Of a stretch of DNA of 64,000 nt, positions 46,207 to 49,519 are shown in pieces (the first letter of the stretch is position 1; the number at the start of each line of letters is the position of its first letter). This DNA comes from Solirubrobacterales bacterium (GTDB taxonomy: Bacteria > Actinomycetota > Thermoleophilia > Solirubrobacterales > 70-9), in contig DASTZP010000004.1 of NCBI GenBank assembly GCA_035764245.1, positions 54,171 to 118,170 of the forward strand. The letters run 5' to 3'. The position numbers were made by a program, and so were the translations under genes. The notes beneath the pieces were generated by a model that worked only from the letters and a program-made list of their open reading frames with translations, ran no database searches and was not told the DNA's origin.

Positions 46207-46255
46207 GGGGTGGCAGACGGAATTCGAACCCGCGACCGCCAGCACCACAATTCGG
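46207..46255 (-). repeat. 49-nt copy of the 3' half of tRNA-His (att-like direct repeat, left end of islet)
   Basis: ggggtggcagacggaattcgaacccgcgaccgccagcaccacaattcgg matches 49444-49492 at 45 of 49 positions. It covers the acceptor 3' strand, T-arm, variable region and anticodon loop. About 17 nt further left are also similar to the sequence 3' of the intact tRNA. Confidence 0.8.
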
Positions 46256-46371
46256 CTGCCGCACGGCGTGCCGATAGCGAATCCCGCATGGCAAGCGGCT
46301 TTGCGCCCGCCTTCATTTGTTCCCGCCGATCCTCTATATGCGGGGATATTCGGCGATTGTCGGGGTGTACT

Positions 46372-46420
46372 GGCAGAAATGCGGGTTTCTGCCTGATCGG
46401 GACCTACCGCGGTTTAAAAC
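46372..46420. repeat. internal islet repeat, left copy (hairpin + GGTTTAAAAC)
   Basis: ggcagaaa-tgcggg-tttctgcc, then tgatcgg, then ggtttaaaac. It lies 33-81 nt upstream of the ApeA-like gene. Confidence 0.5.
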
Positions 46421-46452
46421 GGGATAGCCGGTTCCTCTTATAGAAGAGGGCT

Positions 46453-47670
46453 GTGACTTGGAAGACCAAAGCACGCCTCTTGGCGGGGGAAGCGGTTCTC
46501 GGGTATTTCGAGATAGCCGGCTCGGATGAACCACTCTCGGGGCACCTGCACTGGACGGTGGAGTCGGGGGCGATGATCGAGCTAGTTGATGCGCATTGGC
46601 AGCGGCCAATCAACACGGAACATCTGACGGTGCATGGACTGCTTGAAGAATCGGACCCCATCACTCTTCTGAACGGCATCGTCCGACGGACGACGGTCGA
46701 CCACCGCGTAAAGAGAATCGGGTCCTACACCCTCGCCTTCGGTGAGCACATCAAATCGGACTCGACCTGGGACAGGGCTATATACGTCTCCCGCAATCTC
46801 GCGGAGTGGCGTGGAGTTACCGGCCTAGATCACTCGTTGCCTGACGGTCCCGGCAATCGATTTCGATATCGCATCGACTGGGAGCCCCCGGCGACGGATG
46901 AGGTATCGGTCAAGGGCGCTCGGCTGAAGTTCGCCACTGGCGTGGAGTCGGATGTGGGGCTGATGCCCGCATACACCCTGCGGTCAAAACAGCACGTCAT
47001 TGTCGAGGCTCGCCGGCCACAGCGGCTGGAAGCGTTGTCGCGCAGCTACGCCATGCCCCTGCTGGCACTAACCGCCTTCGCCGCTGACCGACCCGACTCC
47101 ATCATTGAGGAGCACTACAGCCACGGAAAGCGAAAGCAACGCATCGAAGTCTGGCGAGCCGGCACCTCGATGGAGCCCCCGGAATGGCGACACAACGCTC
47201 TCCTTTTCTACGCGGGCGAGCTTCCCGACTTTCGACTGTCGATCGTCCGATGGTGGCGCCTGTACGAGAAGACGCGCCCCGCACTTGGCATTTTCGGCGA
47301 TTACATCAACGAGGGTCTCACCTTCTCGCGCCCACGCCTGATCACGCTCCATACCGCGATCTGCGGGTACACGGATGCTCGCCACGGTCATCGAGATCCG
47401 CGCAAGCTTCGTGCCTACTCGGGAGTGTCCAACGAGATCACGGGATGCTCAAACACCGTTCTCGGTCTGTTCGGCGCAGCCAGGGATTACTTTGCTCATT
47501 TGGGAAGCCCCGGCCAAAAATATTCTGTGACTGAAATTGAAGAAGGCACTCTAAAAGTGACCCGGCGAGCAGCGGCCCTCATGCAAGCGACCCTCTTAGC
47601 GGAGCTTGGATTCACGAAGACGCGAACGTCAGCTCTCCTTCGGCGTCATTACACGAATTGGGCACTCTGA
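46453..47670 (+). CDS. ApeA-like protein: beta-rich N-terminal domain + C-terminal HEPN domain (R-x4-H)
   Basis: GTG start after agaagaggg. The N-terminus LGYFEIAGSDEPLSGHLHWTVESGAMIELVD...TVHGLLEESDPITLLNGIV...LAEWRGVTGL follows the pattern I recall for ApeA N-terminal domains. The helical C-terminus carries R344-DYFA-H349 (47482-47499). Confidence 0.6.
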   Translation: MTWKTKARLLAGEAVLGYFEIAGSDEPLSGHLHWTVESGAMIELVDAHWQRPINTEHLTVHGLLEESDPITLLNGIVRRTTVDHRVKRIGSYTLAFGEHIKSDSTWDRAIYVSRNLAEWRGVTGLDHSLPDGPGNRFRYRIDWEPPATDEVSVKGARLKFATGVESDVGLMPAYTLRSKQHVIVEARRPQRLEALSRSYAMPLLALTAFAADRPDSIIEEHYSHGKRKQRIEVWRAGTSMEPPEWRHNALLFYAGELPDFRLSIVRWWRLYEKTRPALGIFGDYINEGLTFSRPRLITLHTAICGYTDARHGHRDPRKLRAYSGVSNEITGCSNTVLGLFGAARDYFAHLGSPGQKYSVTEIEEGTLKVTRRAAALMQATLLAELGFTKTRTSALLRRHYTNWAL

Positions 47671-47759
47671 GCCCAGTCCCGCTCGCATCGAGCTGCCGCC
47701 TTCCAGCAACCAGCGAGTTTCGTCGCGCTCGGGCCGAACGGTTCGCGTGAGGGTTCGCA

Positions 47760-48803
47760 ATGCTTGGACCGATGGGAAAGCATCGCGACAAAAAGCCAAA
47801 ACAGCAGGCGCCACTTAGCGGTGCTGAGATCGCCGCGCTCAACAGGGCCTTTTACGGCACCGATCCGGCGGAGCACTTCAGCCGTCGTCTGCATCTGCTT
47901 CTGGCGCAGGCGAGCCAAAGCGACGCAGAGCTTCGAGCCGAAGCGAAGGAGTACAAGTTCGGAAAGATTTCGATGACCGTCCCATCGGTCGCCGAGAGCG
48001 AGGCTGACGAAGACGCTCATAAGCGTTTTGTGCTTGTAGAGGCTGAGCTATTTATTCATCACGTAGCCGAGACCTTGATGCGCCTCTATTTTGCCCACTC
48101 GGGCAACGCCCCGGCACCTTGGGTAGAGATGGCCAAGCTTCGGGGACCGGGTGAGTTCACGCGACGACTGAAGGCTTTCCGTAAGGAGCGACAGAAGGAG
48201 AGCGTGTTGAGTCAGATACGGCTCGTCTTCTTTGGTTATAAAGAATTCCCGCCGGAGTGGAGTAAAGAGAAGGTCGCCGAGAACGAAGCCGCTGTTGGGA
48301 GAATCGCAGACTACCTCGACTATTTCTCGGAACTGCTCCTTGAGCGTGGGCAAACCTACAACGCCGTGAAGCACGGGCTGGCCGTCGAAGCGGGAGAGTC
48401 TGCGATTGCAGTCGGCGAGATCAAGGAGCTGTCAGCCAGTGGGCCTTCGATCGCCTACCTCGACCGCGGACGTGATGATGAAAAGAAAAGCTTTTGGGCT
48501 GTAAGGACCCGTTGGATCCCGCTTGAGTTCGACATCACCCTGGCCCACGTTGGCACCCAACTCCTAAATGCACTCTGGACGGTGGCGCGCATCCGCTATG
48601 TGAAATGGCCCATCCCGAAAAATGGTCAGCGCCTGTCGATTCCAACGACGTCGTTAGGAGATGTCAGAAAGGCGGCGACTATGCCGGACATCCAGATTGG
48701 CGAGGTCGCGTTTCCAGCGGAGATGCATTGTCCCCCCGGTGCCGGCGCCGACGCCAAAATTGCACGCCTGAACGAGGAAGCCATGAAGGGCACGGACGGC
48801 TAG
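47760..48803 (+). CDS. hypothetical protein, partner of the ApeA-like gene
   Basis: 347 aa with the same foreign codon usage, 89 nt downstream on the same strand. The basic N-terminus is MGKHRDKKPKQQ. A helical core carries LFIHHVAETLMRLYFAH and YNAVKHGLAV. No family recognised. Confidence 0.65.
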   Translation: MLGPMGKHRDKKPKQQAPLSGAEIAALNRAFYGTDPAEHFSRRLHLLLAQASQSDAELRAEAKEYKFGKISMTVPSVAESEADEDAHKRFVLVEAELFIHHVAETLMRLYFAHSGNAPAPWVEMAKLRGPGEFTRRLKAFRKERQKESVLSQIRLVFFGYKEFPPEWSKEKVAENEAAVGRIADYLDYFSELLLERGQTYNAVKHGLAVEAGESAIAVGEIKELSASGPSIAYLDRGRDDEKKSFWAVRTRWIPLEFDITLAHVGTQLLNALWTVARIRYVKWPIPKNGQRLSIPTTSLGDVRKAATMPDIQIGEVAFPAEMHCPPGAGADAKIARLNEEAMKGTDG

Positions 48804-48975
48804 ACCCGAGCATCGTTCGGGTGACCACAGCTCGGCCTTGCTGCTGCGCCACCTCGAAAAGGGTGGGGGTCTCTCAGGTCCCGGAGACTCGCATCGTCCG
48901 TGGTGGCGTTTGCCGTGGGCGCGGTCTCGGAGGCGCTCCGCGACCTTCCAGCTGATCTGCTCGTCGAGAGGAGCT

Positions 48976-49272
48976 TCACGCCAAGGCTGCCTGTTGGCGC
49001 TGCCAGGCCGCTTCGGCTTCATCGGCGTCTGCGGTGTCGAGGATGATGCGCCGGTCGATCTCGTCGGGGAAGGCGCCGTAGTAACGGGCCGCAGTCCGCA
49101 CCTGACAGTCGGTGAGGTTGAGAAGCTCGCCGGTGGCAGCGATCGCCTCCTCCCCCCGCGCCTTGCCGCTCTTGAGCGTGGCCATGACCTCCCATATGTC
49201 TGGCCCGCCGACCAAGGCCGCGCGGCAGCCAGTGGGTCCGTCCCGGAAGACGATGCCGCGGAAACCCTCCAT
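48976..49272 (-). CDS. DUF433-like small protein (antitoxin/DNA-binding-like)
   Basis: GCRAALVGGPDIWEVMATLKSGKARGEEAIAATGELLNLTDCQVRTAARYYGAFPDEIDRRI resembles the DUF433 pattern: a beta-hairpin followed by helices ending in ..A..YY...P.EI. Recognised from memory only. Confidence 0.45.
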   Translation of the reverse strand: MEGFRGIVFRDGPTGCRAALVGGPDIWEVMATLKSGKARGEEAIAATGELLNLTDCQVRTAARYYGAFPDEIDRRIILDTADADEAEAAWQRQQAALA

Positions 49273-49348
49273 GCGTTCACCGTAGCCAATGACATTTCAT
49301 GTCACGGAAATCGGCACCTATCGCCGCACATCCCCGCCTATCCATCCC

Positions 49349-49400
49349 CATCAGGCAGAAACTGCCTGATGGGAAGCGGAAATTGGGCCCGGTTTAAACC
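49349..49400. repeat. internal islet repeat, right copy (hairpin + GGTTTAAACC)
   Basis: catcaggcag-aaa-ctgcctgatg, then ggaagcgg, then ggtttaaacc. Same orientation as the left copy. It lies 77-128 nt upstream of the minus-strand DUF433-like gene and 46 nt from the tRNA 3' end. Confidence 0.5.
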
Positions 49401-49445
49401 AACTCGGCCAACCCGACATACCCATTCGCAGCAGATTCGATTAGG

Positions 49446-49519
49446 GGTGGCAGACGGGATTCGAACCCGCGACCGCCGGCACCACAAGCCGGAGCTCTAC
49501 CAGCTGAGCTACTGCCACC
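49446..49519 (-). tRNA. tRNA-His (anticodon GUG) with encoded G-1
   Basis: The reverse complement is ggtggcagtagctcagctggtagagctccggcttgtggtgccggcggtcgcgggttcgaatcccgtctgccacc(c). It folds as a cloverleaf with anticodon loop ttGTGgt, T-loop ttcgaat, and an extra 5' G pairing with C73. CCA is not fully encoded. Confidence 0.9.

Follow-up and report, generated by a model that had tools for sequence, protein, structure and literature searches.

An integrase-less defence islet between tRNA-His and its displaced fragment in a Solirubrobacterales genome

Introduction

How does a 3.2-kb block of foreign-looking DNA, with no recognisable integrase of its own, come to lie between an intact tRNA-His gene and a displaced piece of that same gene? 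The question is raised by a stretch of 64,000 nucleotides from a Solirubrobacterales bacterium (GenBank assembly GCA_035764245.1, contig DASTZP010000004.1, positions 54,171 to 118,170), which we call the window and in whose coordinates all unprefixed positions are given; comparison loci carry L numbers. The block, hereafter the islet, holds three open reading frames (ORFs): a gene for an ApeA-like HEPN protein, a gene of a rare family (ORF347) and an antitoxin-like gene (ORF98). An earlier note on this DNA had left two explanations side by side, a decayed island reduced to its cargo or a non-autonomous element mobilised in trans. The first is the better supported, and the second is possible. 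The answer that we favour, at a probability of about 0.7, is that the islet belongs to a family of tRNA-targeting tyrosine-integrase elements as a decayed member without an integrase, similar in kind to a cis-mobilizable element (CIME), and that it is now a fixed defence islet with cargo turnover by recombination.

Results

The frame of the islet

ARAGORN finds a single tRNA gene in the window, an intact tRNA-His(GTG) on the minus strand at 49444-49518, which is also matched by the Rfam model RF00005 (49446-49518, 66.6 bits). The earlier note had the gene and its strand right and placed it at 49446-49519, so that only the ends shift. The islet lies downstream of the 3′ end of this gene and measures 3.2 kb from there to a displaced tRNA-His 3′ fragment at its outer end (46207-46250, minus strand). 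A direct repeat of 49 nt had been claimed, and 45 of the 49 positions do agree between 46207-46255 and 49444-49492, which are oriented alike. The homology that is upheld across relatives is 44 nt long, with 42 positions identical, and in the right copy (49444-49487, minus strand) it spans the tRNA from its 3′ end to the anticodon loop. The final 5 nt of the longer repeat are part of a conserved junction, GCCNAA, rather than tRNA homology. In the window this junction reads GCCGAA (46251-46255) and abuts the displaced fragment on the element side; in the fragments of at least six genomes it replaces the anticodon-stem strand, whatever the anticodon stem of the genome's own tRNA. A 31-nt core of the repeat occurs at these two sites only in the window, where 0.00 matches are expected from shuffled sequence, and a search tolerating 10 mismatches in 34 nt found no third copy there. 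Similarity had further been reported for about 17 nt past the tRNA end; it is present but weak, and a profile of tRNA-downstream regions has no match left of 46207.

The anticodon loop is one of the classical integration sublocations in tRNA genes. With an intact tRNA at one end and a fragment in the same orientation at the other, the islet has the end structure of tRNA-integrated islands.

The composition of the DNA between the repeats is that of a foreign insert, as the earlier note had judged by eye. The GC content is 0.602 inside the islet against 0.717 and 0.720 in the flanks, and the GC content at third codon positions (GC3) is 0.69 for the ApeA-like gene, 0.66 for ORF347 and 0.83 for ORF98, against 0.93-0.98 for backbone genes. 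The suspected lack of an integrase was likewise confirmed. None of the three islet ORFs matches a recombinase in Pfam, NCBIfam, PADLOC or PHROGs, and the integrases of the family described below, together with a serine resolvase, have no match anywhere in the 64-kb window when used as queries in tblastn and phmmer. Two other kinds of element do not fit. A prophage or phage-satellite remnant should have phage-family genes, and no islet ORF has a PHROGs match at E <= 0.1; an integron-like cassette array is rejected because the motifs of the islet ends occur once per end, never between cargo genes, and there is no integrase. We found no sigma-70-like promoter in the islet, and the terminators predicted there are not above chance.

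Relatives of the locus

The monooxygenase gene that flanks the islet places the genome in the Solirubrobacterales and has ten species-level relatives there at 85-90% identity. The site itself is hypervariable among relatives whose flanking genes are 85-90% identical. Downstream of tRNA-His lie, in different loci, a 1724-aa RHS/Ntox37 toxin (L012), DUF1156 and SNF2 genes of a DISARM-like kind (L013), an HD-domain protein (L014), a toxin-antitoxin pair with a DUF4238 gene and a canonical ApeA (L019), a toxin-antitoxin pair only, within 1 kb (L017), a Gp49/HTH pair (L032), or an almost empty 0.4 kb (L018). The earlier note would have given up the idea of an insertion had relatives carried the same three genes here with backbone-like composition; instead the cargo differs and the composition deviates. 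Nor does the left copy prove to be a conserved tRNA pseudogene without connection to an insertion, which the note would also have counted against the idea.

What these loci share is their ends. Several of the islands finish with a distal arm of about 170 nt followed by the tRNA-His fragment, and most of them start with a proximal arm of about 150 nt. Two members of the family also carry an integrase. In L011 the tRNA-His, a tyrosine integrase and the fragment all fit within 1.7 kb. The other, an 8.9-kb element from a metagenome (L198:7626-16549), comprises tRNA-His, a tyrosine integrase, a Schlafen AlbA_2 protein, two unknown ORFs and a 992-aa CHAT-domain protein. Its integrase has a Pfam match of 4e-17 and is 72% identical to that of L011. 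The outer end of L198 consists of a decayed inner tRNA fragment, a distal arm that is 86% identical to positions 46205-46423 of the window, and an outer fragment without mismatches (43/43), and the element appears to be complete. Both integrase-bearing members share the distal or the core-proximal arm with the window.

Such members are rare. Among 107 ORFs of at least 180 aa from some 45 island regions there is one tyrosine integrase, the remainder belonging mostly to defence-type families, and phmmer detects no other recombinase among them. About 13 islets, at tRNA-His and at tRNA-Ala(CGC), are closed at both ends and have neither integrase nor recombinase.

Some arrangements are more elaborate. 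In L159:1495-6502 two tRNA-His fragments stand in tandem behind one tRNA, and on the contig that contains L156 and L189 a 7.3-kb island is followed by a fragment, a second proximal arm and an antitoxin-like gene; successive integrations could account for either arrangement. The displaced fragment in most genomes carries the lineage-specific variants of the genome's own tRNA-His. The fragment at L011:19155-19189 resembles the tRNA-His variant of L018 (20622-20656) and not that of L011 itself, which hints that the L011 element came from another lineage.

The conserved arms

The proximal arm of the window (X, 49266-49443) is a conserved element of about 150 nt that matches a profile of 33 tRNA-His downstream regions at E = 2.5e-42 in nhmmer. 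It contains the motif GGTTTAAACC (49391-49400), the hairpin ATCAGGCAG-AAA-CTGCCTGAT (49350-49370) and a tandem GCGGGGAT/GCGGCGAT motif (49316-49342). The distal arm (X′-Y, 46256-46421), about 170 nt including the core-proximal segment, is recognised by its conservation beside the fragment in relatives. It contains the palindrome GGTTTAAAAC (46411-46420), the long-loop hairpin GGCAGAAA-N6-TTTCTGCC (46372-46393) and a tandem motif of the GCGGGGAT type (46336-46365). The two arms are built from the same set of parts, a palindrome, a hairpin and tandem 8-mers about 10 bp apart, the tandem motif having opposite orientations in the two. The proximal-arm profile picks up the hairpin of the distal arm and, inverted, its tandem motif.

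Both arms are widespread. The distal arm stands beside the fragment at 77-86% identity in L012, L018, L019, L159, L110, L186, L189, L198 and L001, and is found in tRNA-Ala islands as well, at about 80% identity. A scan with the hairpin recovers more than 50 Solirubrobacterales loci, where tRNA-His(GTG), tRNA-Ala(CGC) or one of their displaced fragments has the proximal arm just downstream. The same element recurs through the loci L100-L190, for example at L142:2525-2699 and L189:7086-7260, as GTTTAAACC, the hairpin ATCAGGCAG-NNN-CTGCCTGAT and the tandem GCGGGGAT/GCGGCGAT.

Two ideas about the arms were tried and dropped. As a structured RNA the proximal arm has little to offer: it has no Rfam match, and nothing but the hairpin folds. 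Our search pattern fixed the stem of that hairpin; some covariation is seen at two pairs that flank it. Additional selective constraint on the arms was not seen either, their identity being about that of third codon positions in the flanking gene for a Baeyer-Villiger monooxygenase (BVMO).

History of the islet

The gene set of the window islet is found again on two metagenome contigs, L193 and L194, whose similarity to the window stops at the fragment, at 46223 and 46206 respectively. The fragment decays differently in the window, in L193 and in L194, and in the latter two the erosion includes the acceptor end. Because the fragment is eroding separately in three lineages, the integration scar is older than their divergence. 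The islet is therefore not a recent insertion; it is common to the lineages of the window, L193 and L194.

Its parts do not all have the same age. Segment and 100-nt window identities reveal a block with 96-100% identity to L193 (46400-48850) that covers the ApeA-like gene and ORF347, against a background of 81-87% for the arms, ORF98 and the monooxygenase gene. The ApeA-ORF347 cassette as such is 97-98.5% identical to L193. The contrast in identity indicates that this block was recently exchanged by recombination, with breakpoints that appear to lie inside the islet rather than at the repeats. The islet is a mosaic, in which recent exchange is seen for the ApeA-ORF347 block only.

The cargo

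The first gene of the islet (46453-47670, plus strand) encodes a 405-aa ApeA-like HEPN protein, recognised by Pfam, PADLOC, motif alignment and BLASTP. It matches the Pfam family ApeA_NTD1 (PF18862) with 27.0 bits, just above the cut-off of 25.5, and the PADLOC candidate family PDC-S58 at 1.3e-15; HEPN_Apea scores 20 bits, under its Pfam cut-off of 24.4. In an alignment of 24 sequences, the window protein and 23 homologues, R344 and H349 of the RxxxxH motif are invariant. BLASTP against a canonical ApeA gives 4e-8 with 24% identity over 212 residues, and the motifs align. The protein belongs to a small, divergent clade of 27 homologues, ApeA_NTD1 being found in 17 of the 27, and these occur as solo genes in varied contexts. 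A search with the family profile found no solved structure for the family by sequence.

Canonical ApeA is a single-protein abortive-infection system whose activated form cuts tRNA anticodon loops, as described for variants from E. coli (bioRxiv 10.64898/2026.01.26.701840). The islet protein has the same layout, an N-terminal ApeA_NTD1 region and a C-terminal HEPN domain with RxxxxH, and differs in that its clade is divergent and its HEPN_Apea score falls below the cut-off. Judged by these matches, it is probably an abortive-infection tRNA anticodon nuclease.

A perfect 6-bp inverted repeat, CCTCTT-ATAG-AAGAGG, occupies 46434-46449, 4 nt before the start codon of the ApeA-like gene; it could act as an operator or belong to the translation-initiation region. 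At L009:7864-11221 and in L010 a 69% identical homologue of the ApeA-like protein adjoins a Thoeris pair (ThsA Macro, ThsB TIR), with a TrwC relaxase in the region, which gives the small clade one more defence-island setting.

The next gene, ORF347 (47760-48803, plus strand, 347 aa), has no match in Pfam, NCBIfam, PADLOC or PHROGs, and a set of 5.8 billion proteins contains 13 homologues. Its AlphaFold2 model, a confident one (mean predicted local distance difference test score, pLDDT, 79), has no match in PDB or BFVD at E <= 0.001. The invariant residues include E94, H100, H101, E104, R108, H113, N201, K204 and H205. The idea that the ApeA-like gene and ORF347 form an obligate pair was dropped, each being found without the other; ORF347 homologues occur without ApeA in L091, L195, L205 and L207. 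We regard ORF347 as a candidate accessory or defence gene.

The surroundings of these homologues are diverse. At L091:8632-11056 the homologue is split by an IS256-like transposase, at L205:5534-6568 it lies near a TrwC relaxase, and at L207:4336-5256 it adjoins a DUF433/PIN_10 pair. In L195 the place of the ApeA gene is taken by a tandem trio of genes (L195:8783-9750), each about 93 aa long and with a weak Pfam match of the Cas2-like kind, and a 160-nt stub of the ApeA 3′ end is kept before the ORF347 homologue. This locus and the insertion in L091 are examples of replacement at the level of single genes.

The tRNA side of the islet is occupied by the remains of a toxin-antitoxin pair, both on the minus strand. 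At 48820-48979 tblastn with the intact toxin of L019, itself a DUF5615/PIN_10 protein by Pfam (DUF5615 1.9e-16), matches its residues 1-54 across three frames, a frameshifted and 3′-truncated remnant. ORF98 (48976-49272) has no Pfam match and corresponds to the C-terminal two thirds of the antitoxin-like gene of L017 and L019, which is 150-165 aa long there. It is 82% identical in amino acids to residues 65-165 of the L019 protein and lacks the 52-67 or so N-terminal residues present in L017 and L019. As read from the sequence, neither gene of the pair in the window is intact, that of the toxin being a pseudogene and that of the antitoxin a truncated form. The earlier guess of a defence or toxin-antitoxin cargo proved sound, given the ApeA-type HEPN protein and the decayed DUF5615/PIN_10 pair.

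The surroundings of the islet

The 380 nt to the left of the fragment (45826-46206), outside the islet and upstream of a 367-aa gene on the minus strand (44722-45825), had been called non-coding and unassignable, which agrees with our results. Only unsupported ORFs without a Pfam match are present, and the segment has no match in any fetched locus. That it might be the displaced original tRNA-downstream element was ruled out, as a profile search finds no sequence like the proximal arm there. No relative of the 367-aa protein turned up in GTDB species genomes, nor a match to its ORF in any fetched locus; the gene has an intermediate GC3 of 0.87. Exact-protein look-ups with the ApeA-like protein and with the response regulator encoded at 42850-43530 gave no match in the assembly collection. 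The left side of the hotspot is variable too, the DNA left of the fragment being different in the window, L193 and L194.

Two other low-GC patches were noticed in the window, at 38000-39000 (GC 0.55-0.58; ORFs 37630-38889 and 38071-38904 without a Pfam match) and at 55750-56750 (GC 0.60-0.66, AT skew 0.3-0.4; ORF 56113-56742 without a Pfam match). These may be other small foreign inserts.

Discussion

The anatomy of the islet, its family with integrase-bearing relatives, the decay at its ends and in its cargo, and the high-identity cassette can be put together as follows. Elements of the family would integrate into tRNA-His, and a sister lineage into tRNA-Ala(CGC), with the crossover probably in the anticodon loop. 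Since the homology runs from the anticodon loop to the 3′ end of the tRNA, integration would regenerate the tRNA and push the old 3′ part to the far end. The lineage of the window would then have lost its integrase, presumably before it split from those of L193 and L194, after which the toxin-antitoxin pair on the tRNA side may have decayed and the outer repeat begun to erode. At present the islet would serve as a fixed chromosomal docking place for defence cargo. Its main gene is that of the ApeA-type protein, which, by homology, would respond to infection by cleaving the anticodon loops of tRNAs and aborting the phage cycle. Rather than by site-specific excision, cargo would turn over by recombination in neighbouring genes and within the conserved arms.

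Several observations weigh against this account. Many sister islets have perfect repeats, and at least some of them may still be active. The same cargo was found together with an integrase in none of the relatives. The proximal arm is conserved order-wide at two tRNA loci, a hint of some function for which a pure relic would have no use. The cargo of L198 is separated from the distal arm by a decayed inner tRNA fragment, and in L018 that arm directly adjoins the intact tRNA; the distal arm may thus be the fossil of an older layer and not an arm of the integrase element. An inner decayed fragment before the distal arm is not a general feature of the islets, a possibility that we ruled out, as it is significant in L198 only and marginal in L189. 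Lastly, none of the sampled genomes has an empty site with the same left flank, because that flank is itself variable.

The most serious rival is that the islet is a functional non-autonomous element, whose arms and core are working attachment (att) sites and which is moved by an integrase of the L198/L011 type, supplied in trans or in cis after tandem integration. In its favour, at least 13 islets that are closed and lack an integrase, spread over two tRNA targets, keep both arms and in many cases perfect repeats, and the same motif set of palindrome, hairpin and tandem 8-mers is present in both arms. The core-proximal arm is common to the integrase-bearing members, and the tandem arrays in L159 and L198 are consistent with accretion. 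However, the available 64 kb contain no integrase, the repeat of the window has 2 mismatches in 44 nt with the orthologous fragments in L193 and L194 eroding, and the arms evolve at about the synonymous rate. Furthermore, we detected a single recent transfer, and its breakpoints fall within the islet and away from the repeats. We consider this explanation possible but unlikely for the islet. A broader version, that the arms are the working recombination sites of an order-wide, CIME-like platform for defence cassettes in the Thermoleophilia, with tRNA-His and tRNA-Ala(CGC) as its two targets, is one that we put forward only tentatively, as a similarly improbable one. Such a platform would store small integrase-less defence islets, and the rare members with an integrase would move them, either in trans or following a tandem integration.

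A second rival grants site-specific integration no part in the present structure, and takes the fragment and arms for an old, vertically inherited landmark; cargo at this recombination hotspot would be exchanged between related genomes, by a homologous or an illegitimate route. In many relatives unrelated cargo does lie next to the fragment and distal arm, cassette-level exchange is directly seen, and remnants of gene-level replacement survive in the ApeA 3′ stub of L195 and the toxin stub of the window. There is also precedent in hotspot #37 of E. coli, where 68% of the occupied cases have no detectable mobile element (PMC10121019). Yet a regenerated tRNA together with a displaced fragment (PMC4383910), as this landmark presents, is a textbook scar of integration, L011 and L198 carry integrases in exactly this frame, and the same arms at a second tRNA require past mobility, which leaves this rival very improbable. 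As for a chance match or assembly artefact in a stretch of native low-GC DNA, the short length of the repeat is the sole point in its favour, and we report it as refuted by the 0.00 repeat matches expected in shuffles, by the same architecture in dozens of independent assemblies and by a GC3 of 0.66-0.69 against 0.93-0.98.

The decayed-member reading places the islet among known kinds of element. Like tRNA-integrated islands of the Islander type, in which a regenerated tRNA is accompanied by a displaced fragment (PMC4383910), it runs from an intact tRNA to a 3′ fragment in the same orientation. It is foreign in composition, its occupancy varies among relatives, and its homology starts in the anticodon loop, a classical sublocation. 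It differs from them in having no integrase inside, in its very small size of 3.2 kb, in its imperfect repeat and in being vertically shared by at least three lineages. CIMEs have lost the integration genes and kept the attL and attR ends (PMC5704250). Compared with those of the streptococcal families of ICEs (integrative and conjugative elements) and IMEs (integrative elements that can be mobilised), the islet likewise has no integration or transfer genes and appears to have recognisable attL-like and attR-like ends, and its relatives L159 and L198 show, as static arrangements, tandem arrays of the accretion type. The differences are that the autonomous relatives L198 and L011 carry an integrase with no conjugation or mobilisation genes, and that the host belongs to the Thermoleophilia, in the phylum Actinomycetota. 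A further parallel is offered by the defence hotspots of E. coli (#37) and P. aeruginosa, which mostly have no identifiable mobility genes (PMC10121019, PMC10250203). The E. coli #37 and P. aeruginosa core defence hotspots are also fixed sites between conserved genes where the defence systems differ by genome, but the site described here is framed by a tRNA, a fragment and arms of about 150 nt, and the same arms recur at tRNA-Ala(CGC).

Conclusions

In itself the finding is an ordinary one, a tRNA-anchored defence islet that has lost its integrase, which is a known kind of element. The parts most worth following are ORF347 and the pattern at the level of the family. ORF347 is rare, has no detectable fold relative and travels with defence genes, which makes it a candidate for a new defence or accessory gene. 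At the family level, tRNA-His and tRNA-Ala(CGC) are dedicated, arm-framed hotspots in a poorly studied actinobacterial order, with a cargo of restriction-modification, DISARM-like, ApeA, RHS, Schlafen/CHAT and toxin-antitoxin genes. The autonomous L198, the integrase-only L011, the integrase-less islet of the window and the empty shell L018 form a natural series for studying how such hotspots are serviced.

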